Below are positions 249 to 16,060 of a stretch of 24,000 nt of DNA, in pieces. Origin of the DNA: Euryarchaeota archaeon Ods02 (GTDB lineage: Archaea > Halobacteriota > Halobacteria > Halobacteriales > Halorutilaceae); the NCBI GenBank assembly GCA_028751075.1, contig JAQZDA010000001.1:84005-108004 (forward strand), read 5' to 3'. The first letter of the stretch is position 1; each line of letters starts with the position of its first letter. A program made the translations under genes and the position numbers. The notes below the pieces were generated by a model. It worked only from the letters and a program-made list of their open reading frames with translations. It searched no databases and was not told where the DNA came from.

Positions 249-276
249 CCTCTGCTAAACATTGGGCCGTGATAGG

Positions 277-957
277 ATGAGCGCAACTAAGATACGGGAG
301 GGGAAAACCCGGACCCAGGTGTTCTCTACTGTCCTGGCGTTCCAGCAGGAGCGGGACATCCATCCACGCCAACAGGACATCGTAGAGGAAACCCCTGTAA
401 GCAAGGGCGCGGTCTCCAACCACGTCTCCTCTCTTGTCGACCTCGGGCTCTTGACGGAGGCGGGAGCAGGAGCGTACGCCGTAGACGAAGACCGTCTAAA
501 GGAAGAGTACCGTGAACACGTTGAGGCTACGTTAACACGCGAGGAAGCTGCACCCCCCTTCGAAGACCGCGTGAAAGCACACAACGAGATACGGACACGC
601 ACGAAACGCAACCTGGATGACGTCATCAACAGCCGCGTCGTCCGAGCCGCGCTAATCGTAGCGTTTCTGGAGTCCAGAGAATCACGTCGCATCCAGACGT
701 TCCGAGAAGTGTTTCTCAGGACCGACGAGATAATCCGAGCCGTCGCTACCGACGCCGTCGAACACGGCATCAACGAAGTGCTCGTCGACATCCATGAGGA
801 GGACATAGACGCCATGTTCCTTCTCGCAGTCTCCCTGAACAACACCCATCAGCAGGTCGCTGGAGTAGCAGAACGCGTTCCATCCTTCGAAAAGTTCATC
901 CCCGGAGAAGTTCCCACAGAGTCCATGATAGACTACCTACAGAACAAGGAGAAATAA
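277..957 (+). CDS. Winged-helix/HTH DNA-binding protein, putative regulator heading the R-M operon
   Basis: The ORF track start at 262 is TTG; the first ATG is 277. The N-terminal segment QQDIVEETPVSKGAVSNHVSSLVDLGLL has a MarR/ArsR-like recognition-helix pattern. The stop at 955-957 is 3 nt before the hsdM ATG at 961. The C-terminal ~150 aa are unrecognised. Confidence 0.6.
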   Translation: MSATKIREGKTRTQVFSTVLAFQQERDIHPRQQDIVEETPVSKGAVSNHVSSLVDLGLLTEAGAGAYAVDEDRLKEEYREHVEATLTREEAAPPFEDRVKAHNEIRTRTKRNLDDVINSRVVRAALIVAFLESRESRRIQTFREVFLRTDEIIRAVATDAVEHGINEVLVDIHEEDIDAMFLLAVSLNNTHQQVAGVAERVPSFEKFIPGEVPTESMIDYLQNKEK

Positions 958-960
958 CCA

Positions 961-2451
961 ATGGCACAAGCATCACTTGACCTCGACGAACTGGAGAACC
1001 ACCTCTTCGAATGCGCCGACATCATCCGCAACACAGTCGATAAGACCGACTACAAGGACTACATCCTCCCGATGGTCTTCTACAAAAGCCTGAGCGACAC
1101 CTACGCGGACCAACGGGAGCAGATGGTGGAGGAGTTCGGAGACGAAGAAATCGCCGAAGACCCCGACCTCTACGACTTCCCCATACCCGACGGATACCAG
1201 TGGGAGGAGTTCATCAACCAGAACAAGAACGTCGACAAGTTCCTCAACGACGCATTCGAAGCCATCGAAAAAGAGAACCCAGAGAAACTATCCGGCGTAT
1301 TCCGCGCCGACTACGTGGGAGCCGACGCACTCGATGACAATGTGCTTCTCGAACTCGGGAACCACCTCGACACCTACAACCTAAGCTCCGAACGCGTACC
1401 CCCCGACATGCTCGGCGAAGCCTACATGGACCTCGTGAAACACTTCGCCAGCGAAGAAGGCCGCGAAGGTGGAGAGTTCTTCACCCCACCTTTCATCGTC
1501 GAGATGATGGTCCGACTGCTCGCACCATTCGAAGAAGGTGATGACTTCCACGACCCCACCGCAGGCAGTGCGGGAATGCTGGTTGAAGCAGCCCGACACT
1601 TCAAAGAAGAGCAGGAGAAAGACCCTGAGACGTTGACGTTGACCGGGCAGGAGCTGAACCCCGATATCGCGGCGATAGCGAAGATGAACCTGTTCATCCA
1701 CGACTATAACGGAGACGTGGAACGCGAGGACTCCCTCCGTAGCCCCCAGTTCACTCGAAACGGCGACCTCCAGAAGTTCGATTACGTCCTTGCTAACTTC
1801 CCCTTCAGCGCGAACTGGCCGAAAGACGAACTTCAAGACGACCCTTACAACAGGTTCGACTGGGCGGATAAACTCCCCCGGGCCGACCGCGGAGACTACG
1901 CCTTCATCATGCACATGGAGGAGCAGCTCAATGACCAGGGGCAGGCAGCTATTGTTGTTCCCCATGGTGTGCTGTTCCGTAAGCACGAGTCGCGTTACAG
2001 GGAACCCATGATAGAGGAGGATATCGTGGAAGCGGTTATAGGGCTACCAGAGAACCTTTTCCAGAACAACAGCATACCCAGTGCGATACTGGTGCTGAAC
2101 GAGGATAAGCCCGAAGAGCGAGAGGACGAGGTCTTATTCCTCCATGCTGCAGACGAAGACTTCTATCGGGAGGAATCCAATCAGAACATCCTCACTCCAG
2201 ATGGGATAGACCACATCGTCGGAAACTTCAACGAGTGGAAGACAGAGGAACGTGTATCACGGCGGGTTCCACGCGACGAGATACGTGAGAACGACTACAA
2301 CCTCAACATCGCGCTCTATGTCGACACGACGGAGCCGGAGGAGGATATCGACGTTGAGGTAGAGCTGGAGAAGCTGAGGGACCTGCAGAGCGAACGCAGC
2401 GAAATCGAGAGTCGGATGGACGAACACATGGAGGTACTGGGGTATGAGTGA
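961..2451 (+). CDS. hsdM: Type I restriction-modification system, N6-adenine DNA methyltransferase subunit M
   Basis: HsdM-N-like N-terminus (LFECADIIRN..DYKDYILPMVFYKSLSD). SAM-binding motif FHDPTAGSAGML. Catalytic motif IV NFPF (YVLANFPFSANW). The stop overlaps the hsdS start (ATGAgTGA at 2444-2451). Confidence 0.93.
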   Translation: MAQASLDLDELENHLFECADIIRNTVDKTDYKDYILPMVFYKSLSDTYADQREQMVEEFGDEEIAEDPDLYDFPIPDGYQWEEFINQNKNVDKFLNDAFEAIEKENPEKLSGVFRADYVGADALDDNVLLELGNHLDTYNLSSERVPPDMLGEAYMDLVKHFASEEGREGGEFFTPPFIVEMMVRLLAPFEEGDDFHDPTAGSAGMLVEAARHFKEEQEKDPETLTLTGQELNPDIAAIAKMNLFIHDYNGDVEREDSLRSPQFTRNGDLQKFDYVLANFPFSANWPKDELQDDPYNRFDWADKLPRADRGDYAFIMHMEEQLNDQGQAAIVVPHGVLFRKHESRYREPMIEEDIVEAVIGLPENLFQNNSIPSAILVLNEDKPEEREDEVLFLHAADEDFYREESNQNILTPDGIDHIVGNFNEWKTEERVSRRVPRDEIRENDYNLNIALYVDTTEPEEDIDVEVELEKLRDLQSERSEIESRMDEHMEVLGYE

Positions 2452-3814
2452 CGAGGCGGAGCAAGCGGGCTTGGACGAGGTCGTGGAGGAGTACGCGGAG
2501 GAAGGCGAACAAGAAAAAGCAGAACGCACCGCCCCTGATTTACCAGAGAACATTCCCGCAGACTGGAAAGTGAAGACCGTAGAAGGAGTAAAGCAGGACC
2601 TACTCGGAGGCGGAACACCGAGTAAGGGTAATGATGAATATTGGAATGGTGAGATACCTTGGGCAAGCGTGAAAGACTTAGATAGTATCACGCTCTCGGA
2701 CACGGAGGACCACATAACCGAAAAGGGACTGGAAGAGAGTGCGGCTAATCTGATACCGTCTAACTCGATAGTAATTTCTACCCGAATGACGGTCGGGGAG
2801 CCTTTCATTAACAAGACGAAGATGGCGATAAATCAGGATATGAAGGGTATAAGCCCTAACAGCGAGCTTGTGAATACTTATTATCTCGCGTACAATCTCC
2901 GACGCAAAGACCCGTATCTAAAGAGTCTCGGAAGAGGAACGACCGTTGACGGTATCACTACCTCTGACTTGGAAAGGACACACGTAGAACTCCCACCCCT
3001 CCCCGAACAGCGCAAGATTGCGAGCGTGCTCTACAACGTCGACGAGGCGATACAGAAGACCGAGGAGATAATCGAGCAGACGAAGCGGTTAGAGAAGGGA
3101 GCCATTCAATCAGTTTTATCGGATGGAACGAAAGACCGCACAGCAAAAAAGCACACTCCAATCGGAGAGATACCAGAAGAATGGGAAGTGAAGCAAGTTA
3201 AGGAGCTAACTGATGTTACTGTCGGCTACGTGCAGACTATTGATGGTCACTTTACCAATTCGGGGAACGGCGTTAGGCTGTTCCGAACGCAGGACATCTC
3301 GTCGAGGGGATTACAGACTGATGAAGAAATATACGTAACAAGAGAGTTCCACGAGGATAACAAAGGTTCACAGGTGGAGCCAGGCGATTTAATCGTATCC
3401 AGACATGGAGATAGTGGACAGGCAGCTGTTGTGCCCGATTCGCTTGACGAAGCACACAGTCAAAATGTGGTTGTCATCCGCTCATCAGATTCCTTCGTCT
3501 CCGAGTTCCTTGAGTATCTGTTTAACTACGAAACCACCAGACAGCGGCTGTTAGCCTGGAAAGCTGGCTCGGTACAGAAGGTGGTTAGCACTACAGCAGT
3601 CCAGAACTTCCGTATTCCTCTCCCACCGATTGACGAGCAGAAGGAAATCATCGAGAATCTATCATCTATGCGTGGCCGATTAGAAAACGAGCAGGGATAC
3701 TTGAACCGTCTCCACCGCCTCAAACGCGCCTTAATGCAGGACCTCCTAACGGGCGAGGTGCGCACCAATGACCGCGCCATCGAGGTACTACCGGAGGTGG
3801 AGGCGCATGGATAA
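2444..3814 (+). CDS. hsdS: Type I restriction-modification system, specificity subunit S
   Basis: Two target-recognition halves, each followed by a conserved helical spacer that repeats at protein level (LPPLPEQRKIASVL...LEKGAIQSVL and LPLPPIDEQKEIIENL...LKRALMQDLLTGEVR). TRD1 has the GGTPSKGNDEYWNGEIPWASVKDL motif. The start overlaps hsdM by 8 nt. Confidence 0.9.
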   Translation: MSDEAEQAGLDEVVEEYAEEGEQEKAERTAPDLPENIPADWKVKTVEGVKQDLLGGGTPSKGNDEYWNGEIPWASVKDLDSITLSDTEDHITEKGLEESAANLIPSNSIVISTRMTVGEPFINKTKMAINQDMKGISPNSELVNTYYLAYNLRRKDPYLKSLGRGTTVDGITTSDLERTHVELPPLPEQRKIASVLYNVDEAIQKTEEIIEQTKRLEKGAIQSVLSDGTKDRTAKKHTPIGEIPEEWEVKQVKELTDVTVGYVQTIDGHFTNSGNGVRLFRTQDISSRGLQTDEEIYVTREFHEDNKGSQVEPGDLIVSRHGDSGQAAVVPDSLDEAHSQNVVVIRSSDSFVSEFLEYLFNYETTRQRLLAWKAGSVQKVVSTTAVQNFRIPLPPIDEQKEIIENLSSMRGRLENEQGYLNRLHRLKRALMQDLLTGEVRTNDRAIEVLPEVEAHG

Positions 3815-3823
3815 GTACAAGGG

Positions 3824-4474
3824 GTGGCTTCGGTGAGCCATGAATACACAGTGCACTCCATGATGCACGTTGCCGAGGCTCAGGCATCCAACTTGAGCGA
3901 GATTGACCGGTTAGAGGATATGTTGACCGGCTACAAATACTCGGCCCAAGGCTCCACCTGTAAGATAATGGTCTCCGGCGGTTCGGAAGAGAAAGAACAG
4001 CCTTGGAAACTCATGATATACGGTGGAACCTCCACCGAGGAAGCCGAGGGGTACATACAGGAACTCGGTGAATCCGTCGAAGATGCAGGAGGGGAGTTTG
4101 AGCTAACCAAGTCACCCGTGATTACGAACCTCGCTGTTAGCGGTGAACTTGGGACCGACTCTCTAAACTTAGAGGGGTTATCCGTCAACCTCACGCAGAA
4201 GGGGTTTGATTTCGAGTACGAACCCGAGCAGTTCCCCGCTCTACAGTTCTACATGAAAGAACCGGAGTGTACATTCCTGCTCTTTTCCACCGGGAGCTAC
4301 GTTATACAGGGGCTACGTGAGTTTGACGATATACCAGTGTCCTTGAACAAAATGGGACCCATACTGGCGGATTCGGGCGAGATTAAGAGCGAAGAAATTC
4401 TCCATGGACGGAGCGATGACCTCGCACAGGATAATACGCCTGAGAAAAGGAAACGGACGGAGGGGTGTCAATAG
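3824..4474 (+). CDS. TATA-binding-protein (TBP)-like domain protein; C-terminal repeat well conserved, N-terminal repeat degenerate
   Basis: ITNLAVSGELGTDSLNLEGLSVNL..FEYEPEQFPALQFYMKEPECTFLLFSTGSYVIQG matches the canonical TBP repeat pattern (I.N.V.S..lg..l.L; EYEPEQFPG; LLiFsSGK.V.tG). The upstream half keeps only KLMIYGGTSTEEAEGYIQELGESVEDAG, which resembles GKlVvTGAKs...a...l...l...G. The start is ambiguous: GTG 3824, GTG 3833 or ATG 3860. It lies 9 nt after the hsdS stop. Confidence 0.7.
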   Translation: MASVSHEYTVHSMMHVAEAQASNLSEIDRLEDMLTGYKYSAQGSTCKIMVSGGSEEKEQPWKLMIYGGTSTEEAEGYIQELGESVEDAGGEFELTKSPVITNLAVSGELGTDSLNLEGLSVNLTQKGFDFEYEPEQFPALQFYMKEPECTFLLFSTGSYVIQGLREFDDIPVSLNKMGPILADSGEIKSEEILHGRSDDLAQDNTPEKRKRTEGCQ

Positions 4475-4476
4475 AT

Positions 4477-4830
4477 ATGGTTAGCGACGATGCAGTAAAC
4501 TACGCTATCGGGAACCTTCTCGCCGGTCCGAGTCAGTGGAAGAACATGTACGCGACAGGTGCGGGGTTCGCGTTCACATCCAACGTAATCCTTGCTCATC
4601 TGAATCTGGTTCCCGCGCTCTACCCAAGTTTGGGGGAAGCGCAATTAGAAATATACGTCGTTGAGTTAGTGAATGCCTTTATACCACTTGTTGCCTTCTT
4701 CTTTGACAGGCCGGAAAAGGCTATCATGACTGCTGGAATGTACATCTTATTCGGACTCGTTTACTGGACCGCGAAGTACGAAATCGCTACATCTGGAAGA
4801 CAAAGAGGAAGACGCGGAAGGAGGAGATAG
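4477..4830 (+). CDS. Small integral membrane protein (about 3 predicted TM segments) with a C-terminal poly-arginine tail
   Basis: ATG 4477 is 2 nt after the preceding stop and is preceded by GGAGGGG; the track start at 4465 is GTG. Hydrophobic stretches are YATGAGFAFTSNVILAHLNLVPAL, IYVVELVNAFIPLVAFFF and AIMTAGMYILFGLVYW. The tail is SGRQRGRRGRRR. The stop at 4828-4830 is 2 nt before the hsdR ATG. No family recognised. Confidence 0.55.
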   Translation: MVSDDAVNYAIGNLLAGPSQWKNMYATGAGFAFTSNVILAHLNLVPALYPSLGEAQLEIYVVELVNAFIPLVAFFFDRPEKAIMTAGMYILFGLVYWTAKYEIATSGRQRGRRGRRR

Positions 4831-4832
4831 CT

Positions 4833-7796
4833 ATGACAGATGACGACGAACACATAGAAACACCGAGCGAGGGTGGTGTTGAGGTTTCCTTCCTGACCTG
4901 GCTGGATGACCTTGGGTGGGAGACCTACGGACACGACGGCGGAGAAGGAGCTCAAGTTCTCGACGAGGAGTACGACCGAGACAAGAGCGAGGTAGTGTAC
5001 TGGGACATTCTCAAGGAGAAACTACTTGAGTTCAACGAAGACGTCGATGAAGATGCAGCAGATGATATTATCTCTACTCTCCGTAGGAAGCTGTCGCACG
5101 ATAACCTGATGAGTGCTAACCGAGAGTTCCATAAAACGCTGAAGAAGGGGATGAAGTACACGAAGACCGAGGATGGAGGTTCTGAATCGGATTACGCGGC
5201 ATTAATCGACTTCGAGAACCCCGAGAACAACCGGTACATAGCCGTCAACCAGTTCCGTGTCCGAGACCGGGAATCCATCCGACCTGATATCAACCTCTTC
5301 GTCAACGGAATCCCGATAGTCACGGGTGAGCTGAAGTCGCTTGCTCAGGGGAACAACTACCGGAACGCCATAGACGACCTCCGAGATTACGAAGAGGATG
5401 CTCCCCGTTTGTTCGTGCCGGTTCTGATGAACTTCGCCGCCGACACCCTGGACTTCCGGTATGGAGCGGTGGGGGCAACAAAGGAGTTCTACGAACCCTG
5501 GCGGGACGCCCCAGAGGAGCATCAACATGAGAACGAACTCAGGCAATCAGTTCAGGCTTTGTTCAACCACAAAGACCTGCTTGAGATACTGCATAACTAC
5601 GTTTTCTATGAAGAGAAAGCGGGAGGGGACGCCAAGATTATCCCGCGGTATCCGCAGTACTACGCGTCCGAGAAGATAATCCAACGAGTGAAGGAAGACG
5701 AGTACGATAGCGGTTTAGTCTGGCATACTCAGGGAAGCGGGAAATCCTACACGATGCTCTACGCCGCCAGAAACCTCATGGAGTTAGACAGCGAGTACCT
5801 GCGGAACCCTCAGGTCGTCGTGGTGGTCGACACAGACAAGCTCAGGACCCAGATGAAGAACACCCTGGCGAAGGTGGATTTCACGAGTTACGAGGTCGCG
5901 GAGAGCATGAGCGACCTGCAGGACCTCCTTGAGCGAGGTAAGGGCAGTCTCGTGCTGACTACTATCCAGATGTTCGCGGACGTTGACGAAGACGTTCAGG
6001 GTAATGAGGAGACTATCGTGATGGCGGATGAGGCGCATAGGTTCATGGAGAAGGACCTGAACACAAAGATGCGGGCTGCGTTACCAGATGCCTACCACTT
6101 CGGCTTCACAGGCACACCCGTTCGGGAACGCGAGCGTGACACCTTCAAGAACTACTGCCCAGAGTTAGAAAGCGGAGCACGAGAGAACTACCTACATCGT
6201 TACTCCATCAAGGAAGGCATACAGGATGACTTGATTCTCCCGGTGAACTTCGACATCCGTAGCGTGATGGACTGGGATATCGATGAATCCGCTTTGGACG
6301 AGGATTTCGAGAGCTCGTTCTCGGACCTCCCTATCGACCGTAAAGAGAAGATAATCGAGAAGTACGTTACGCAGACTGAGATTTCGGAGCTCCGGTCTCG
6401 GGTTGAGAAGATTGTGGAGGATATCGTCAACCACTACGAGACGAAGATGGAGCCGAACGGCTGGAAGGGCATGGTTGTGACGCCGAGCAGGAAGGCGGCA
6501 GCGTTGTACGGTGAAGAGCTGATGAAGTACCGCGACCCCCAAGACGTCGAGGTGTTGATAACCGCTCAAGGTGACGATGAGAAGCTGTTACAGCAGTTCC
6601 ATACCTCCGATGAAGCCAAGGAAACCGCGGTCGATGACTTCAAAGACGAAAAACAACCTAAGCTGCTCGTAGTCTGCGATATGCTCCTCACTGGGTTCGA
6701 CGCTCCGGTTCTGAAGACGATGTATCTGGACCGGAACCTAAAGAACCACAAGCTGCTGCAGGCTATAGCGCGAACCAACCGACCTGCAGCAGGAAAAAAC
6801 AACGGGTTAATCGTAGACTACGCGGGAGTCTTCGAGAACATCGACGACGCCCTCGACTACGATGAAACCGTCCAAAAACACGCCGCAAGAGACGCAGACG
6901 AACTGCTCGACGACCTGGAAGAGGCCTTAGACGACCTGCTTGAGATATTCGAAGGAGTGCCAAAGGTCGACAGTCAGGAAGCCGTATCTGAGGCGGTTGC
7001 CAAGGCGAACGAGGAAAACAGGGACTTCGAACAAGGGTATGAGCGAGCGCAGGACCTCTACGAAACCATCCAACCTGACAAGCGGCTTGCGGAGCGGAGC
7101 TTGATGGAGCGGTACAAATGGCTCAGTCGCATCCACGTAGCCTACCGGAGGACGAACCGAGAGGACACGCCCGAGGAGGATTACCGGGAGAAGACGAAGG
7201 AATTGATAGACGACCATGTTGACGTGGATGAGATACGGAAGGACTTCCCTATATACGAGATAAGTGAGGAGCACCTGGAAGAGGTCGCGGACCTTGAGCC
7301 CAAGGCACAAGCTACGGAGGTCGCGCACGCTACCCAGGACCATCTGCAACCTCGCCGTGACAAGAATCCTCGTTACAAGCGATTGAGCGAACGGGTCAAC
7401 GATATCGTTAGCCAGTGGAGGAGTGGAGAGCTACCCGACCCTGAAGCGGTCGAGAAATTACGTGAGGTTGAAAGGAGGGCCATAGGGGTTAAGGAAGAGA
7501 TAGAAGAGAACGAGCTCAACAAAGCCGAACACGCTTTATTCACGCTGTTGACTGGAGAGTACGAGGAATATGTTTCCGGTGAGGATGAGGCCAGGGAGAT
7601 TGCCGGGGAAATCGTTGAACGTTTCGAAGACCAGATAAACACGAGTTATGAGGACTGGGAGAAGCAGTCGAAAATTCAGAAGGACATCAAGAAGCTGGTG
7701 ATGGTGGTTGTTGTCAAGGAGTACAGTAACAAAGCTTTGTACGATGAGGGTTTCACTGAGAAAGCTCGGGACTACTTGATTGAAAACTATGCCTGA
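4833..7796 (+). CDS. hsdR: Type I restriction-modification system, restriction/translocase subunit R
   Basis: N-terminal PD-(D/E)xK nuclease motif (RPDINLFVNGIPIVTGELK). SF2 helicase motifs: Walker A HTQGSGKSYTM, DEAH box MADEAHR, FGFTGTP, LTGFDAP, QAIARTNR. Length of 987 aa is typical for HsdR. Confidence 0.95.
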   Translation: MTDDDEHIETPSEGGVEVSFLTWLDDLGWETYGHDGGEGAQVLDEEYDRDKSEVVYWDILKEKLLEFNEDVDEDAADDIISTLRRKLSHDNLMSANREFHKTLKKGMKYTKTEDGGSESDYAALIDFENPENNRYIAVNQFRVRDRESIRPDINLFVNGIPIVTGELKSLAQGNNYRNAIDDLRDYEEDAPRLFVPVLMNFAADTLDFRYGAVGATKEFYEPWRDAPEEHQHENELRQSVQALFNHKDLLEILHNYVFYEEKAGGDAKIIPRYPQYYASEKIIQRVKEDEYDSGLVWHTQGSGKSYTMLYAARNLMELDSEYLRNPQVVVVVDTDKLRTQMKNTLAKVDFTSYEVAESMSDLQDLLERGKGSLVLTTIQMFADVDEDVQGNEETIVMADEAHRFMEKDLNTKMRAALPDAYHFGFTGTPVRERERDTFKNYCPELESGARENYLHRYSIKEGIQDDLILPVNFDIRSVMDWDIDESALDEDFESSFSDLPIDRKEKIIEKYVTQTEISELRSRVEKIVEDIVNHYETKMEPNGWKGMVVTPSRKAAALYGEELMKYRDPQDVEVLITAQGDDEKLLQQFHTSDEAKETAVDDFKDEKQPKLLVVCDMLLTGFDAPVLKTMYLDRNLKNHKLLQAIARTNRPAAGKNNGLIVDYAGVFENIDDALDYDETVQKHAARDADELLDDLEEALDDLLEIFEGVPKVDSQEAVSEAVAKANEENRDFEQGYERAQDLYETIQPDKRLAERSLMERYKWLSRIHVAYRRTNREDTPEEDYREKTKELIDDHVDVDEIRKDFPIYEISEEHLEEVADLEPKAQATEVAHATQDHLQPRRDKNPRYKRLSERVNDIVSQWRSGELPDPEAVEKLREVERRAIGVKEEIEENELNKAEHALFTLLTGEYEEYVSGEDEAREIAGEIVERFEDQINTSYEDWEKQSKIQKDIKKLVMVVVVKEYSNKALYDEGFTEKARDYLIENYA

Positions 7797-8529
7797 ACAG
7801 GGGGGACAGGCAGGAGACTCGACGTACGAGGTTGAATTGTTCGGGGAGACAGTGGAATACGCGGTTGGCGTTAGTTCTGATGCGACTGAACCCCGGATTG
7901 ACGTAGATATCAACGGTGTTAGAGTGGTTCTGCCAGTTGATTCGGACAAGGATGCTGAAAGGTTGATGCAGGAGAACGCTAACTGGGTGCTACGCAAGAA
8001 AGAGAAATACGAAGAGTACGAGAAAGAGGCTCCGGACCGAGTGTTTGAGGAAGGTGAAGAGTTCCCATACAAGGGAGATAGTTACGAGCTTGACGTTGCA
8101 GACATCGTAGCAAGTCAGGTAGATGGGAACTACATCAGGTTACCTCGTTCACAGGTGGATAACTCGGATATTCAGGAGGTTCTTCAGGAGTTCTACCGGG
8201 ATAGAGCAAGGGAGTTCTTTGAGGTGAAAGTTGAGGAGTATTCTGACGAGTTGGATGTAGAGTACGAGAGTGTCAGCATTCGGAATCAGAGGACTCGATG
8301 GGGTAGCTGTTCCGCGAAGAAGAACTTGAGTTTCAACTGGCGGTTAATCATGGCTCCGCCAGAGGTCGCAGAGTACGTCGTCGTACATGAGCTCGCTCAC
8401 CTCGTTGAGAAAAATCACACGAAGAAGTTCTGGTTAACGGTAAAAGACCTCATGCCGGATTACAAGGACCACGCTAACTGGCTCGACGAAAACAGCACTC
8501 AGCTGATATTCACAGTAGAAGACCTATAG
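7789..8529 (+). CDS. DUF45 / YgjP-like (M48-related) zinc metallopeptidase
   Basis: HExxH zinc motif in the characteristic context YVVVHELAHLVEKNHTKKFW, preceded by RWGSCS..KNLSFNWRL. ATG 7789 overlaps the hsdR stop (ATGCCTGA, 7789-7796). The track start at 7780 is TTG. Confidence 0.8.
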   Translation: MPEQGGQAGDSTYEVELFGETVEYAVGVSSDATEPRIDVDINGVRVVLPVDSDKDAERLMQENANWVLRKKEKYEEYEKEAPDRVFEEGEEFPYKGDSYELDVADIVASQVDGNYIRLPRSQVDNSDIQEVLQEFYRDRAREFFEVKVEEYSDELDVEYESVSIRNQRTRWGSCSAKKNLSFNWRLIMAPPEVAEYVVVHELAHLVEKNHTKKFWLTVKDLMPDYKDHANWLDENSTQLIFTVEDL

Positions 8530-9583: not shown

Positions 9584-10549
9584 ATGGCATCCACTCCAGA
9601 GTTAGGATTTAATGAGTTAGAACCTCAAGAGGTCCGCGATTACTGGGACGACGAAGCCCGGGACTTTACGCCCTGGCTTGCTGAATCGATTTCGTCCGAC
9701 GAGGCTTCTCATCTATCTGACGTGCTGGGGTTGGACCTGGAGGTAAAGGAGACAGAGAAGAATGTCGGTAGATATCAAGTCGATATCTTAGCGGAAGTTG
9801 TAGACGACGGAAGGCAAATCGTAATCGAGAACCAGTTAAACGACTCTGACCACGACCATCTCGGGAAGTCTATCGCGTACGCAGCGGGTTTAGACGCCGA
9901 TATCATCGCCTGGATAGCCCCCACCTTAAACGATGAACACAGGGATGCCATACAGTGGCTGAACCAGAACAGCAGGGAGGGAGTGGATTTCTTCGCTATT
10001 CGGTTGGAGGTCTGGAAGATTGAGGAATCCCCTCCAGCGGTTCGTTTCAATCCGGTTGAAGACCCAAGTGAGTGGAAAGAGAAAGCTCAGAGGTCGAGGG
10101 ATGAGCTTACTGAAACGAAGAAGCTTCAGGAAGCCTACTGGACGACGTTCCGAGATAAAATCCGGGAGAGAGATACACCGTTGAGACCGCGGAAACCGAA
10201 GCCCAAACACTGGTACAACAACCCTATTGGGAAGTCTGGATACAAGCTCCAATTCACGGTCAATACAAGAGAGAACCAGCTATACTGTCAGTTAGTCATC
10301 AAGGATGATGCTGAGGGATACCACGAACTCGAACGCCAAAGAGAGGAGATAGAAGATGAGATGAGTGTTTTGGATGAAACCTTGTTGTGGAGACCTCCCG
10401 AAGAAGGGGATAGTGACTGGAGTAAGATAACTCTAACAAGAGAAGGATACTTAGAGAACGAGGATGCTTGGGATGAGTATCACGACTGGATGTTTGAATG
10501 TGGAGAAACATTCTACGAAGTATTCTATGACAGAATTCAAGAGCTATAG
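9584..10549 (+). CDS. PD-(D/E)xK nuclease-superfamily protein with DUF4268-type C-terminal domain
   Basis: The core YQVDILAEVVDDGRQIVIENQLNDSDHDHLGKSIAYAAGLDADIIAWIAPTLNDEHRDAIQWLN matches the conserved pattern of this family (DIla...vvIENQl..tDHdHLGk..tYaag..a..viWia..f..eHr.al.WLN). Transcribed divergently from 8551-9468. Confidence 0.7.
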   Translation: MASTPELGFNELEPQEVRDYWDDEARDFTPWLAESISSDEASHLSDVLGLDLEVKETEKNVGRYQVDILAEVVDDGRQIVIENQLNDSDHDHLGKSIAYAAGLDADIIAWIAPTLNDEHRDAIQWLNQNSREGVDFFAIRLEVWKIEESPPAVRFNPVEDPSEWKEKAQRSRDELTETKKLQEAYWTTFRDKIRERDTPLRPRKPKPKHWYNNPIGKSGYKLQFTVNTRENQLYCQLVIKDDAEGYHELERQREEIEDEMSVLDETLLWRPPEEGDSDWSKITLTREGYLENEDAWDEYHDWMFECGETFYEVFYDRIQEL

Positions 10550-10680: not shown

Positions 10681-12303
10681 TTAGTACTTGTTCTTACTCG
10701 GAACTCTGATGTGTGAGAGGTCGTCGTATTTTTTGACTAACGCCTTGAGCTGTCGGTAGGTTATCCCTTCGTTGAACTCCGCACCATATTGCTCTTCGAA
10801 CCACTCCCATGCTTCATCCCACCCTTGGAGCTGCAGCAGACGGTTTGCAATACTTAACCGCTCATAGTGCTTCAGCCCTTGTATATCGTATTTCCCTTCT
10901 TCCACCGCTTCTTGAAGTTCTCTTGTCCTCGACTTACCGGTTTGCTCCGGTGACTCCGAAGAAGGGGTATTCTCGGTGTATTCTGACCCTGCGGACCCTA
11001 CATCATATCCTTCATCTCTCAGGTATTCGAAGGCCGGAGATTTGCCACCATCCGATAGATACGAAGCGCCTTCAACCACTTGCCGTATGTTCAACTTGAG
11101 TATTTTCGAGCTCCTGCTTTGACCGCCGATTACCGCTACAGCGTCACCCCCACCAAACCCTCTATCAACCCATTTTTCGTAGTCAGTTTCTGACAGTCGG
11201 AGTGGACAAGGACCTCGGACTGTGAACTCTCCGCCACAACCTTTCGCTTCGTAGAACTTCGCTGGGATGAACGTACTTTCCTCCACCCCTTCGTGGTTCT
11301 TCCTACAGTAGGCGTTGCCTTTGACCTGTAGGAAAGCGAGGCTTCTGCCTCCGTTCCCCGCGTTCGCGTAAGGTGAGAAGGGATGTCGGTTGTATCGCTT
11401 CCATTTCTTGGCCCCGTTTTTGTCCTTAGGAGGTGTTTTCCTCTCTTGTAATGGAACCTCAGCGACTTCTTTGGTTAACTCCAGCCCCGTATCTTTCCCG
11501 CCGAGCAGGAGGAGGGCATCAGAGAGGCCTTCTTCGTAGGAGGTATCAGTAGTGTCCATTAGGGCTGTATTAGCCGCTGTGGTTCGTTTGTGGGTGTACT
11601 GGAAATGGTCGAGAGGTGTCTGTATCTCTCGGTTGTCTTCTGCGTTGACTGCTTTACTTACGCATTCCTTTCTGGTGTCACCATGTTCTATTTCTACTTT
11701 GGGTAGTTCTGTCTTCGAATGACGGACTCCCGGGAGTCTGAAGGTTTGTTTACGTTTGTATATATCATCGAGTTCTGCCTCATGCTCGCTGCAGAAGTCC
11801 TTGACCTTGTTCTTCAGTAGCTTTCGTTGTTCCTCTCCGACCGCGAACTTCGGGGTATGGACATGGATGGACCGGTTTCCTGAGAAGTAGTACTGACAGC
11901 TAATGGGGTCGATATTGAGTTCTCTTAGGATTGTGTCAAACCAATCGAAGAGCACTGAGGTTTCAACGCCGTCCTCTAATGCATCGCTTTCGAGATAAAC
12001 TGGATACAATACGTCTCCGTCCTCGGTTGCTTCCTCGCATTCGGTCTGCAGTATATTGGCGATGGACGTGTCGCCTTTCCAAGGGCTGTCAGAGTCCGTC
12101 AGACGGTTCCACTGACCGTCAGAGAGGAGGTAAACCGGGCTGATGTAGCAGGCATCCTCTGGAATAGGTTGGTCCACAGGCTGTAGTGACGGAAGCTGAC
12201 GGTAACTGTCAGATGTTTTCTCGGTGTAGCGGACGCAGGCTGTGTAGCATGTTGTTTGCGCAGACGATACAACTTCAGTTGAAGCGTGTTTAGTGAATGA
12301 CAT
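10681..12303 (-). CDS. Archaeo-eukaryotic primase (AEP) superfamily primase-polymerase-like replication protein
   Basis: AEP-like motifs in order: acidic motif I VYLESDALEDG, motif II YYFSGNRSIHVHTPKF (sGxxxxH type), motif III ELDDIYKRKQTFRLPGVRHSKT. I saw no Walker A/helicase domain. Start placed at ATG 12303 (MSFTKHAS). The track start at 12414 is GTG and adds a basic G/P/R-rich 37-aa extension that looks non-coding. Confidence 0.65.
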   Translation of the reverse strand: MSFTKHASTEVVSSAQTTCYTACVRYTEKTSDSYRQLPSLQPVDQPIPEDACYISPVYLLSDGQWNRLTDSDSPWKGDTSIANILQTECEEATEDGDVLYPVYLESDALEDGVETSVLFDWFDTILRELNIDPISCQYYFSGNRSIHVHTPKFAVGEEQRKLLKNKVKDFCSEHEAELDDIYKRKQTFRLPGVRHSKTELPKVEIEHGDTRKECVSKAVNAEDNREIQTPLDHFQYTHKRTTAANTALMDTTDTSYEEGLSDALLLLGGKDTGLELTKEVAEVPLQERKTPPKDKNGAKKWKRYNRHPFSPYANAGNGGRSLAFLQVKGNAYCRKNHEGVEESTFIPAKFYEAKGCGGEFTVRGPCPLRLSETDYEKWVDRGFGGGDAVAVIGGQSRSSKILKLNIRQVVEGASYLSDGGKSPAFEYLRDEGYDVGSAGSEYTENTPSSESPEQTGKSRTRELQEAVEEGKYDIQGLKHYERLSIANRLLQLQGWDEAWEWFEEQYGAEFNEGITYRQLKALVKKYDDLSHIRVPSKNKY

Positions 12304-12342
12304 TTTTATAGCTATTACGCGTCTACCCGCAGCTGCTCGGGT

Positions 12343-12406
12343 GTGTCCGGACACAGGCGCAGGGCCACGCGACCCCCCGACAGAGGGGTATAAGTAGGGT
12401 CCGGAC
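12343..12406. promoter_or_regulatory. Paired GTCCGGAC palindromes upstream of the primase-like gene (candidate operator or origin element)
   Basis: Perfect 12-bp palindrome GTGTCCGGACAC at 12343-12354. Its 8-bp core GTCCGGAC occurs again at 12399-12406, 54 bp away. Confidence 0.35.
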
Positions 12407-12685
12407 GTCGGCACACCTCGACCCCGACTCTATCCGGCGGTCCTCGCACTATACATAGGAGGTGGTGAGGTTTATACTAAACAGCAAGAATGTGTCCTAC
12501 TACCCATCTCCACCTACACAGTCACTACGAGTGGTAGTTAGAATGGGGGTATGGAGGAGGGAACAAGTTGGGGGGGTGTCGGGGTCTCCCCTCCTCCTTT
12601 ACACCCAATACGAGCAGGTTAGTAAATAAAAAGATATACCCTGAATCCATCTGAACAAGGGTTTAAGTACCAGTGTTTCCAGCGG

Positions 12686-13225
12686 TTAGCTGGTTTCTAC
12701 GTCGAATTTATGCTCGTAACCAGGTACAGTGATGTTCAACCATTCGAGGAAATCCAACGCAGTTTGACCCTGGAGTTCGATGTTGTCGTGTCTGGCTCTG
12801 GCGTCGAAACCTGCTTCCTCCAGTATCTCAGCTCCAACTTTCGAACTACGGTCTAAACTCGTCATGTCGATTAACGCAAACTCAGTTTCTACGTCCCAGG
12901 TCCCTCTTCGCGCCCACCATAAGCTCGCTGTCTCCGGCGTCAACGTAAATTTTGAGGGTAGGGTTTTCTCCTTGTTTTTGTACCAGCGCTGCCGCCAGCT
13001 TTCTAAGTCTTCGTCCGTCGTAGTCTGGAACCTATATTTTCCCTCCGGCTCATGTCTACTGGCGTCAATACCTCCATCGAACTCCTCAACTAACCAGTCG
13101 ATGTACTCCTTTTTCTCTGACCTTTCCCTAACGAATGGATAGGGTCTGTTCTTTGATTGTATGATAGATGCTTTTCCGAACAAGATACCGTTCAGAATGT
13201 AGGTCTGTCTTACACTCAGGTCCAC
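12686..13225 (-). CDS. LAGLIDADG homing-endonuclease-like fold protein with substituted catalytic acidic residues (probably inactive)
   Basis: The pattern YILNGILFGKASI..(n)..KEYIDWLVEEF, then WYKNKEKTLPSKFTLTPETASLWWARRGTW...ALIDMTSL....AEILEEAGFDA, parallels the double-motif LAGLIDADG layout (LLGDGs...eYl.wl; W...g.K.vP..LtP..La.W..DDGs...l.l.t.sf....L...L...gf). The motifs read GK and RRG where DG and DDG are expected. Confidence 0.45.
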   Translation of the reverse strand: MDLSVRQTYILNGILFGKASIIQSKNRPYPFVRERSEKKEYIDWLVEEFDGGIDASRHEPEGKYRFQTTTDEDLESWRQRWYKNKEKTLPSKFTLTPETASLWWARRGTWDVETEFALIDMTSLDRSSKVGAEILEEAGFDARARHDNIELQGQTALDFLEWLNITVPGYEHKFDVETS

Positions 13226-14817: not shown

Positions 14818-15915
14818 CTACCCTATCTTATCCAACGCCTCCCTCCGGTCTTCCACCGGAACCTGGTCGTACTTCATCGTTGTCTTAACACTTCTATGAC
14901 GGAGCTGTGCCTTCGTCGCAGCGAGGTCCCGCTCCTTCGTCATGTAGGTCCCTGTTGAGTGTCGGATGGTGTAGAAGCTCATCTGACGGTCGGAGTAATC
15001 TATGCCTGCCTTGTCACACACGCTACGTAGCAGTCTACTGAGTTCCTTCGAGCTGTAACGGTTACCATGCCGCGTCAACCAAAGCGCGTCTGTGTCATCG
15101 TATCGCGGGTTCTCGCTACGTTCTTCTATCCAGCGTTCTAACGCGGTCGCGGTCCGCTCGGTCACGCTCACCGCCCAATCACCCTCGTTCTTACTGGATT
15201 CCTCGCGTGGTATACGCAGGAGGCCGTTGTCTGGTTCCACCCAACGCGTGCTTGCCCGGCGTACCTCGACGGGACGTAAGGCTGCATCGAGGCTCGTCCA
15301 GAACAGGGAGGTGTACTTCCAGCTTGTGTCCTCGTCCACGACGTCCTCGTCGTCGAGTCCATAGCTCGGGTTCCCATCCATCTGCAGAGCTGCCTGACGT
15401 ATCTTCTGCCGTTCATCGTCAAGTAGGAAGTCCCGGGGACCGGTGTTCCCGCCTCCACTGTTGAAACTCCAGTCGAACTCCCAGCGTTCCTCGTCGTACC
15501 TGTACTCCAGCCACTTCGAATACCGGAGCAAAGCCTCCAGAATCTTGCCCTTCGTACTCTCAGTGACATCGCGGAACGCTACCTCGTCCATGTATGCTTC
15601 CGCGTGTTCGAAGTCCGGCTGGATTACGTAGCATCCCTCGCGTTCCCAAAGCCAGCGGTCGAAACGTGCGGTCCGGTTCGCCGTCGAGTACACGCTGTAA
15701 GGGCTGTATCCTTCGGCTTTCTCTGGGTTCTTCCCCATCCTTAGGAGGTAGGTGAGGAACCTCTCTCGGTAGTCATGATAGTCGATTTCTTCTTTCTCCC
15801 CCAGTAACTCCGCGTTAGAGTCTGGAACGATGGTTATCGAGCGATTCGGGTCTATCTCATCATCCGCTATCTCAGGGGGACAGCGTTCAGCGGTTTCCTT
15901 GTTTTCAGAGTTCAT
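14818..15915 (-). CDS. Tyrosine-type site-specific integrase/recombinase
   Basis: Catalytic-domain signature in order: ALRPVEVRR (Arg I), YTIRHSTGTYM (R-H box), LRHRSVKTTMKYDQV (His plus nucleophile Tyr). The N-terminus is SAM-like. The gene sits adjacent to the tRNA 3' end. Confidence 0.9.
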   Translation of the reverse strand: MNSENKETAERCPPEIADDEIDPNRSITIVPDSNAELLGEKEEIDYHDYRERFLTYLLRMGKNPEKAEGYSPYSVYSTANRTARFDRWLWEREGCYVIQPDFEHAEAYMDEVAFRDVTESTKGKILEALLRYSKWLEYRYDEERWEFDWSFNSGGGNTGPRDFLLDDERQKIRQAALQMDGNPSYGLDDEDVVDEDTSWKYTSLFWTSLDAALRPVEVRRASTRWVEPDNGLLRIPREESSKNEGDWAVSVTERTATALERWIEERSENPRYDDTDALWLTRHGNRYSSKELSRLLRSVCDKAGIDYSDRQMSFYTIRHSTGTYMTKERDLAATKAQLRHRSVKTTMKYDQVPVEDRREALDKIG

Positions 15916-15975
15916 ATCCTGTCATTCATCTCCTTGACAGGCCGGAAAACCACAGGAAGGCTCGCCGAAGGCGAG

Positions 15976-16060
<85 letters not shown>

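Follow-up and report, generated by a model that had tools for sequence, protein, structure and literature searches.

A divergent TBP paralog and a small membrane protein in a haloarchaeal Type I restriction-modification operon

Why does a haloarchaeal Type I restriction-modification (R-M) operon encode, between its specificity and restriction subunits, a protein resembling TBP (the TATA-binding protein) and a small membrane protein? The question is raised by a 24,000-nt stretch of DNA of Euryarchaeota archaeon Ods02 (contig JAQZDA010000001.1, positions 84,005 to 108,004 of the forward strand), hereafter called the window and numbered from its first letter. In the window, hsdS ends with the TAA stop codon at 3812-3814 and hsdR starts with the ATG at 4833; the two open reading frames (ORFs) between them are called ORF-A and ORF-B here. 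The original prediction had proposed that the pair could work as a guard module resembling PrrC of E. coli, with a membrane effector, or alternatively as a dedicated controller of hsdR expression.

We found that the window's Type I R-M operon lies on an integrated island of low GC content and that two independent accessories have been recruited into its hsdS-hsdR junction. Judged by comparison with their homologs, ORF-A and ORF-B are both real genes. ORF-A belongs to a discrete haloarchaeal family of TBP paralogs, to which we gave the name TBPL, and divergent TBP paralogs are recurrent components of haloarchaeal defence loci. The best overall explanation, which we hold with less than even confidence, is that TBPL acts as a regulator of defence loci and ORF-B as a membrane partner of HsdR. 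Other loci are cited by working numbers (L090 and so on).

The TBP fold of ORF-A and the TBPL family

ORF-A runs from the GTG at 3824 to the TAG at 4472-4474 (216 codons). The database protein P0001 (213 aa) begins at another in-frame GTG, at 3833, which follows an AAGGGG run at a distance of 9 nt; this codon may be the real start of the gene. Pfam recognized a single TBP repeat (aa 98-182 only, E=3.8e-14) and left the N-lobe unrecognized, while the best NCBIfam TBP score, 64 bits against cut-offs of at least 181, did not pass the curated TBP thresholds. In a phmmer search against the PDB, aa 62-181 were collinear with archaeal TBPs, and the best PDB matches were archaeal.

The TBP-like fold that had been proposed for ORF-A was borne out by structure prediction. 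The AF2 model, made with 50 homologs, had a mean confidence (pLDDT) of 85 and two lobes, each built as strand-strand-strand-strand-helix. Foldseek aligned the model with the TBP of M. jannaschii at a TM-score of 0.83-0.85 and a root-mean-square deviation of 2.2-2.5 Å (E=1e-10, ~185 columns) and matched it to 44 TBP chains at E<=1e-3. By both methods, ORF-A has the two-repeat saddle fold of TBP. Residues 183-216 make a disordered tail that is unique to the window copy.

The two lobes differ in what they keep. In the C-lobe, the stirrup E131-Y132-E133-P134-E135-Q136-F137 as well as F154 are invariant in 50 family members, in TbpC-like proteins (described below) and in canonical TBPs. This lobe thus retains both DNA-kinking phenylalanines (F137 and F154) together with the stirrup residues E-P-E-x that are predicted to contact TFB. 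We take these positions to be equivalent to E186, E188, L189, F190 and F207 of yeast TBP, that is, the TFIIB/TFB contacts and the kinking phenylalanines. Both kinking phenylalanines are missing from the N-lobe, where the aligned positions are gap/Gly and Val/Ser, so that the four phenylalanines of a canonical TBP (two per lobe) are not all present in ORF-A; the N-lobe stirrup is cut down to a 2-residue turn in the AF2 model. What the TBPL N-lobe has instead is a strand with the motif Y-x-x-H-S-M-M-H, specific to the family, and S4 and S5 are separated by an insertion. By its best PDB matches, ORF-A is clearly derived from an archaeal TBP.

The motif H-S-M-M-H (3854-3868, aa 11-15 of ORF-A) lies in the first N-lobe strand; it is near-invariant in TBPL and absent from all other TBPs. 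On a beta-strand its His, Met and His would share one face, and the motif could form a metal site or make a specific contact with DNA.

A search of 5.8 billion proteins returned 166 homologs of ORF-A, the named ones all haloarchaeal, with lengths of ~160-235 aa among the best 120 of the 166. They form two subfamilies, I (which includes the window copy) and II. A hidden Markov model (HMM) of the family separated TBPL (at least 224 bits) cleanly from canonical TBPs (at most 151 bits). In databases the TBPL proteins are labelled "hypothetical protein" or, misleadingly, "TATA-box-binding protein". In viral contigs, a phage collection and BFVD, we observed ordinary viral TBPs only and no TBPL, and a virus-encoded origin of the family was rejected on this ground.

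Besides the window copy, we fetched 29 TBPL loci, with Haloarcula salinisoli as the single isolate genome, and annotated the neighbors. A restriction gene was nearby in 27 of the 29; the two exceptions were contigs of 1.2 and 2.5 kb. Together with the window copy, the loci made 15 clusters at 80% identity, in 14 of which TBPL lay no more than 2.4 kb, and mostly no more than 135 nt, from a restriction gene, while the remaining cluster consisted of two short contigs. The median gap between TBPL and the restriction gene was tens of nucleotides. Unlike TBPL, canonical TBPs had no restriction neighbors: the same restriction queries matched none of 80 control loci (1.16 Mb), which were contigs found via the EYEPEQF motif common to canonical TBPs.

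The accompanying systems were diverse. TBPL headed a TBPL-hsdM-hsdS-hsdR-YgjP operon, related to the window operon, in nine loci, and in three it faced the YgjP end of another Type I lineage in convergent orientation. Ten more loci had TBPL flanking a Type IIG (MmeI/Eco57I-like) enzyme, and in three it adjoined an Eco57I-type methylase with a PLD-SNF2 nuclease-helicase pair. Single loci had TBPL next to GmrSD and upstream of a 210-aa ORF followed by McrBC.

Upstream of the subfamily II genes, ~30-45 nt before the TBPL start, we observed a 17-nt element, once per locus, with the consensus ATACGCAAGACTCAGGT (for example, L091 377-393, L101 1115-1131 and L118 9958-9974; 13 further loci); a variant, CAACCGGTGGTCTTAGG, was present in five loci. 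The element was rejected as an upstream ORF or an N-terminal extension of TBPL, as both frame and start codons vary between the loci. Being inconsistent in frame, it probably acts in cis as a regulatory DNA or RNA element. It lies where the B recognition element (BRE) and the TATA box would be for a leaderless mRNA, and it could be TBPL's own promoter or operator.

Haloarchaea have many TBP and TFB paralogs with roles that are mostly unexplained. A second TBP paralog was present beside TBPL in L097, L099, L100, L106, L113 and L118; it was found to be similar to TbpC (55% identical to the TBP of pNRC100). In L097, L113 and L118 members of both clades surrounded one and the same system. Among haloarchaeal plasmid genes with at least 48% identity to the L097 query, all eight inspected (L122-L129) were located in or beside defence loci. 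In Halobacterium NRC-1, tbpC (pNRC100 111987-112532; L122) follows a methylase gene, split by ISH27, and a helicase gene. The order PglX-like, helicase, TBP was seen in pHLAC01 and in a Halolamina plasmid. The pglX and pglZ genes of a BREX system flank the TBP gene in Haloarcula halophila, the genes of Halococcus and Halanaeroarchaeum accompany BREX-5, the one of Halobacterium DL1 accompanies a Type I system, and in Salinibaculum the methylase and TBP genes overlap. No such defence neighbors accompanied a Haloferax TBP that shared only 45% identity with the query. A tblastn search of the plasmid collection with ORF-A returned canonical TBPs only and missed the pNRC100 TbpC locus; TbpC-like genes are common in that collection, whereas TBPL was not found there.

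The ISH27 transposase gene (L122 2655-3821; pNRC100 105617-106783) splits the methyltransferase gene that heads the methylase-helicase-TbpC operon of NRC-1. TbpC was reported to be dispensable and unexpressed (PMC4230888), and this insertion may explain the report.

ORF-B, the host operon and the island

ORF-B extends from the ATG at 4477 to the TAG at 4828-4830 (117 codons). The frame as mechanically defined opens at GTG 4465; the N-terminus MVSDDA encoded from ATG 4477 is kept in the L090 homolog. As had been predicted, ORF-B has the features of a membrane protein, with three hydrophobic segments (29-49, 55-78 and 81-100) and an all-helical AF2 model (pLDDT 74). No significant match was found in Pfam, NCBIfam, PADLOC or among PDB folds. 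When 1.8 billion cluster representatives were searched exhaustively with an HMM, only nine relatives, 88-133 aa long, were obtained. Comparison with the L090 homolog (68-70% identical) gave a ratio of nonsynonymous to synonymous substitution rates (dN/dS) of ~0.14; therefore, ORF-B is under purifying selection.

The ORF-B family was located directly 5' of hsdR in all six contexts (the window, L090, L114, L115, L116 and L117). Three of them have either a 2-nt gap or a 1-nt overlap and the remaining three a spacing of 6-54 nt, and the adjacency spanned a GC content of 32-52% and HsdR identity down to 42%. For example, in L090 (ORF-B 69% identical) the gap is 2 nt, the N-terminus of HsdR is 90% identical and no ORF-A is present upstream, while in L114 (52%) the stop and start codons overlap and HsdR is only 42% identical. 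More distant ORF-B homologs are found in L115 (33%; GC 39%), with the order integrase, HTH-fused hsdM (HTH, helix-turn-helix), hsdS, ORF-B, hsdR, in L116 (33%), with the order hsdS, ORF-B, hsdR, and in L117 (40%; GC 32%). ORF-B appears to be translationally coupled to hsdR. The family's position leads us to infer that ORF-B may be a membrane partner of HsdR, either a tether or a control of HsdR level or activity.

The Arg tail described in the original prediction is present in the window ORF-B. Its last three Arg codons, AGG AGG AGA (within 4810-4830), however, form the Shine-Dalgarno run GGAGGAG of hsdR, and the basic C-terminal tail is much shorter in the homologs. With the codons coinciding with the ribosome-binding signal, the tail must be at least partly constrained by the translation signal of the downstream gene.

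Two other small ORFs were observed near relatives of these genes. In L114 a small hydrophobic ORF (3-254), upstream of the ORF-B homolog and overlapping it, has similar motifs (ETAINTFIP, W..SWY) and may be a tandem paralog of ORF-B. In the Halobacterium sp. DL1 plasmid a 126-aa ORF (L127 5516-5896) between hsdR and the TbpC gene did not match the ORF-B HMM.

The predicted layout of the operon was right throughout, from coordinates, codon counts, strand and gaps to the purine runs of the hsdS-ORF-A-ORF-B-hsdR segment. The genes make one tightly packed array on the + strand of the first 8.5 kb, and the identities of the neighbors are backed by Pfam. The first gene (262..957) codes for a winged-helix (MarR/ArsR-like) HTH protein, whose Pfam matches (MarR_2, DUF7343, HTH_5) are all below the gathering score; its likely start is the ATG at 277, with TTTATA upstream at 240-245. 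It is followed by hsdM (961..2451; HsdM_N and N6_Mtase, E=1.9e-84), the Type I methyltransferase, and by hsdS (2444..3814; Methylase_S twice, E=2.5e-43), with two target-recognition domains. ORF-A (3824..4474, TBPL subfamily I) and ORF-B (4477..4830, with ~3 transmembrane helices and a short basic C-terminus) come next, then the restriction/translocase subunit gene hsdR (4833..7796; HSDR_N, SWI2_SNF2, ResIII, T1R_D3-like). The last gene (7780..8529) codes for a YgjP-like Zn-metallopeptidase (PF01863, E=9e-60) and overlaps the end of hsdR by 17 nt. The successive intergenic gaps are 3, -8, 9, 2, 2 and -17 nt. Shine-Dalgarno purine runs precede the ATG codons of ORF-B (GGAGGGG, 4459-4465) and of hsdR (GGAGGAG, 4820-4826). 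By the Pfam assignments HsdM, HsdS and HsdR are encoded together, as in a Type I R-M system.

In the nearest relatives of the operon (HsdM 65-73% and HsdR 54-56% identical) nothing separates hsdS from hsdR, and the two genes overlap by 8 nt. Therefore, the 1,018 bp that separate the two genes in the window are a genuine insertion with respect to these relatives. The YgjP-like peptidase gene is at the same end of the operon in L103, L108, L112 and L113. A homolog of the HTH protein was observed as an N-terminal fusion to HsdM in L115 (2371-4200), in an operon with a GC content of 39%, outside the haloarchaeal range; the fusion suggests that the HTH protein belongs functionally to this Type I lineage.

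The island carrying the operon has ~50% GC, compared to ~64% in the core genome beyond its right end, which is marked by a tyrosine integrase gene (14818-15915, - strand) and a tRNA-Leu(GAG) gene (15975-16060, - strand). We found no tRNA-derived direct (att-like) repeat inside the window, hence the left end of the island is upstream of position 1. The Rfam scan of the whole window showed no RNA family. Outside the operon, the island codes for a DUF4268 protein (9584..10549, + strand; Pfam DUF4268; PADLOC PDC-S11, E=7e-106). A homolog of it directly adjoins hsdM in L103, and the protein may recur as a further companion of these Type I loci. On the - strand the island also codes for a LAGLIDADG-like protein (12686-13225, E=1e-9) and for a protein of 577 aa (10681-12414) that matched no family.

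Regulator, sensor, guard or passenger

What do TBPL and ORF-B do for the systems that they accompany? A first constraint comes from comparing the divergence of TBPL with that of the partner enzymes. Between L112 and L113 the TBPL proteins are 80% identical, compared to 31% for HsdR and 42% for HsdM. The L112 protein is also 80% identical to the TBPL beside a PLD-SNF2 system, and its identity to the TBPLs that accompany a Type IIG enzyme and GmrSD is 70% and 60%, with partner enzymes that are unrelated in each case. An enzyme subunit is unlikely to behave in this way; rather, the partner of TBPL should be something common to all the hosts, such as DNA, TFB/RNA polymerase (RNAP) or a common viral factor.

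This decoupling, the invariant TFB-contact stirrup and the kept DNA contacts of the C-lobe together make us prefer a regulatory role. TBPL would then be a DNA- and TFB-binding regulator of mobile defence loci, of the type of a basal transcription factor, an assignment that we make tentatively. It would travel with horizontally mobile restriction and defence loci, bind DNA and TFB and set or gate the transcription of its locus, as a regulator and not as a subunit of the restriction enzyme. ORF-B, for its part, would partner HsdR at the membrane, by tethering it or by controlling its level or activity. The alternative in the original prediction, a dedicated controller of hsdR, comes closest to this assignment of ORF-A; TBPL is linked, though, to many types of restriction and defence systems and not to hsdR specifically.

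Several observations weigh against the regulatory reading. The operon is already headed by an HTH protein that could itself be the regulator, and TBPL also accompanies Type IV systems, where a timing control of the C-protein kind is not needed. No cis-element common to TBPL genes and restriction promoters was found; the 17-nt element occurs upstream of TBPL only. The loss of the N-lobe phenylalanine pair may abolish productive bending of the promoter, and TbpC, similarly crippled, has been considered possibly non-functional (Becker et al. 2014, PMC4230888). As for the counts given above, several of the TBPL loci come from the same hypersaline metagenomes and hence are not independent, while the canonical-TBP control loci are mostly non-halophile. 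Finally, the adjacency of ORF-B to hsdR, taken alone, fits a tether, a regulator or a toxin alike.

The most credible of the rivals, though an unlikely one, is that TBPL is an infection sensor or a decoy, which protects or licenses whichever restriction system accompanies it. It could mimic the host TBP and detect or soak up viral factors that attack TBP/TFB; alternatively, its DNA-binding saddle could capture viral anti-restriction proteins that mimic DNA. DNA mimics, TAF1-TAND1 among them, are known to target the TBP saddle. Much of what we observed would suit such a role: TBPL resembles TBP, is conserved and has a disabled N-lobe, it occurs in any orientation beside mechanistically unrelated systems (Type I, IIG, IV and PLD-SNF2), and its sequence is decoupled from that of the partner enzyme. 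Moreover, haloviruses encode TBPs (HJTV-2), and TBP-domain proteins occur in the bacterial TOTE/TALON conflict systems (PMC12458937). However, TBPL has no linked effector domain or signalling partner, no viral ligand is known and the idea is purely inferential, and the strict conservation of the TFB-contact stirrup is explained equally well by a role in transcription.

A more sweeping version has, in our view, a somewhat smaller chance still of being right. It says that haloarchaeal defence systems (Type I, IIG and IV R-M, PLD-SNF2 and BREX-5) carry crippled TBP copies, both TBPL and TbpC-like, as guards or decoys of the transcription machinery, which would detect or absorb a viral takeover of TBP/TFB or DNA mimics and would license or protect restriction, with ORF-B adding a membrane anchor for HsdR.

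The PrrC-like module of the original prediction requires that ORF-A and ORF-B work together, kept latent by the R-M complex, and that ORF-B is the effector that disrupts the membrane. The pair does occupy the same hsdS-hsdR slot as prrC and is tightly coupled in translation, and a small multi-helix membrane protein is of a kind able to act as an abortive-infection effector. The distribution of the two genes speaks otherwise. Five of the six ORF-B contexts had no ORF-A, and none of the 29 fetched TBPL loci had ORF-B. The only other hsdS-ORF-A-ORF-B-hsdR arrangements were found in three contigs, with ORF-A and ORF-B proteins identical to those of the window, and these contigs may come from the same organism. 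As they are rarely together, the two genes are accessories independent of each other, which happen to coincide here. Thus, of the linkage that had been put forward as a check on the prediction, the tie to restriction genes was strong for both genes, but the tie between the genes themselves was missing. In addition, ORF-A and ORF-B have no ATPase, HEPN or nuclease domain (Pfam, NCBIfam and PADLOC), in agreement with the prediction's own reading of the motifs; ORF-B is constitutively coupled to hsdR and has no partner antitoxin, and its Arg tail is largely the hsdR Shine-Dalgarno sequence. We found no specific support for ORF-B as an abortive-infection effector, and the claim of a co-functioning pair was given up as improbable.

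It is just as improbable that TBPL is a structural, DNA-bending accessory subunit of restriction complexes that, for example, loads or orients them on DNA. The very tight adjacency of the genes, with ends overlapping or nearly so, and the retained DNA-contact residues of the C-lobe would fit such a subunit. The divergence data given above do not, since TBPL proteins 80% identical accompany HsdR proteins 31% identical and the same type of TBPL serves Type I, IIG, GmrSD and PLD-SNF2 systems; besides, the TBPL gene is convergent to the operon in several loci.

The least probable explanation is that there is no functional link at all, with TBPL a decaying duplicate or a hitch-hiker in the backbone of integrative elements and ORF-B a lineage-specific leader ORF: the genes do lie within integrase-bearing islands and the analogous TbpC was found dispensable and unexpressed (PMC4230888), but TBPLs from different samples are 60-80% identical across loci, with many invariant residues and with synonymous sites saturated (proportion of differences pS ~0.85) while the nonsynonymous proportion pN is only ~0.27-0.32, TBPL immediately adjoins a restriction gene and is not just anywhere in the island, and ORF-B is kept beside HsdR proteins only ~42% identical to each other.

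As a regulator of these loci, TBPL would be the first case of a basal-factor-type protein controlling a defence system; if it is a sensor, the defence principle would be new, with its logic built on the universal initiation factor of archaea and eukaryotes. In either case, the TBPL and TbpC-like clades gain a concrete and testable context as near-obligate neighbors of restriction and BREX systems. The ORF-B data suggest that a dedicated membrane partner exists for some of the archaeal Type I enzymes, which bears on where restriction meets incoming viral DNA. The HMMs of both families could be used to mark archaeal defence islands. In the openly accessible literature that we searched, no paper linked TBP or tbpC to R-M or BREX, neither the TBPL-restriction nor the ORF-B-hsdR association was found, and, as the original prediction had supposed, no system of such composition was described.

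Comparison with known systems

Both the E. coli prr locus and the window operon have extra coding sequence in the hsdS-hsdR slot (here, 3824-4830). PrrC and RloC consist of an ABC-ATPase domain and a C-terminal HEPN nuclease, and Pfam, NCBIfam and PADLOC detected neither domain in ORF-A or ORF-B. Latency or abortive infection of the PrrC type left no sign in the two genes, whose distributions are independent.

TOTE/TALON are bacterial conflict systems in which a TBP-fold protein is combined with TPR-CSD/OB proteins and with RNase H or NERD effectors (PMC12458937). They share with TBPL the presence of a TBP-fold protein in a prokaryotic conflict or defence locus. Those partners (TPR, CSD/OB, RNase H, NERD) were all absent from the operon and the island.

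A canonical archaeal TBP (PF00352 twice) has the same two-lobe saddle as ORF-A, and the EYEPEQF stirrup and both C-lobe phenylalanines are identical. The differences include the N-lobe features described above: ORF-A has neither the kinking phenylalanines nor the stirrup there and adds the HSMMH strand and the S4-S5 insertion. Closer in this respect is TbpC, which lacks the N-terminal phenylalanine pair, keeps the C-terminal pair and was considered possibly non-functional or very specialised (Becker et al. 2014, PMC4230888). ORF-A and the TbpC-like proteins agree in both features, and both clades are encoded in or beside restriction or BREX loci. Still, the TbpC-like proteins have two Pfam TBP repeats compared to one in ORF-A, the two are only 20-27% identical, and ORF-A does not group with the Halobacterium TbpC. 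With HMM scores that set it cleanly apart, TBPL is a separate and more divergent family.

The functional parallels that we propose are bacterial. R-M controller (C) proteins are Xre-type HTH proteins that bind a C-box operator upstream of their own gene or of the R gene. We found no C-box-like operator for TBPL, so that what remains is an analogy of function. C proteins, the BrxR/WYL regulators and TBPL are alike in being small DNA-binding proteins (predicted as such for TBPL) encoded inside or beside many types of restriction or BREX loci, and TBPL is often the first gene of its operon, as are the genes of the C-protein and BrxR regulators. The folds are different: HTH or WYL in C proteins and BrxR, compared to the TBP saddle in TBPL, with TFB/RNAP as the presumed partner. 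TBPL may thus be the archaeal basal-factor counterpart of these regulators and, if so, the archaeal answer to a problem that bacteria solved with C proteins and BrxR.

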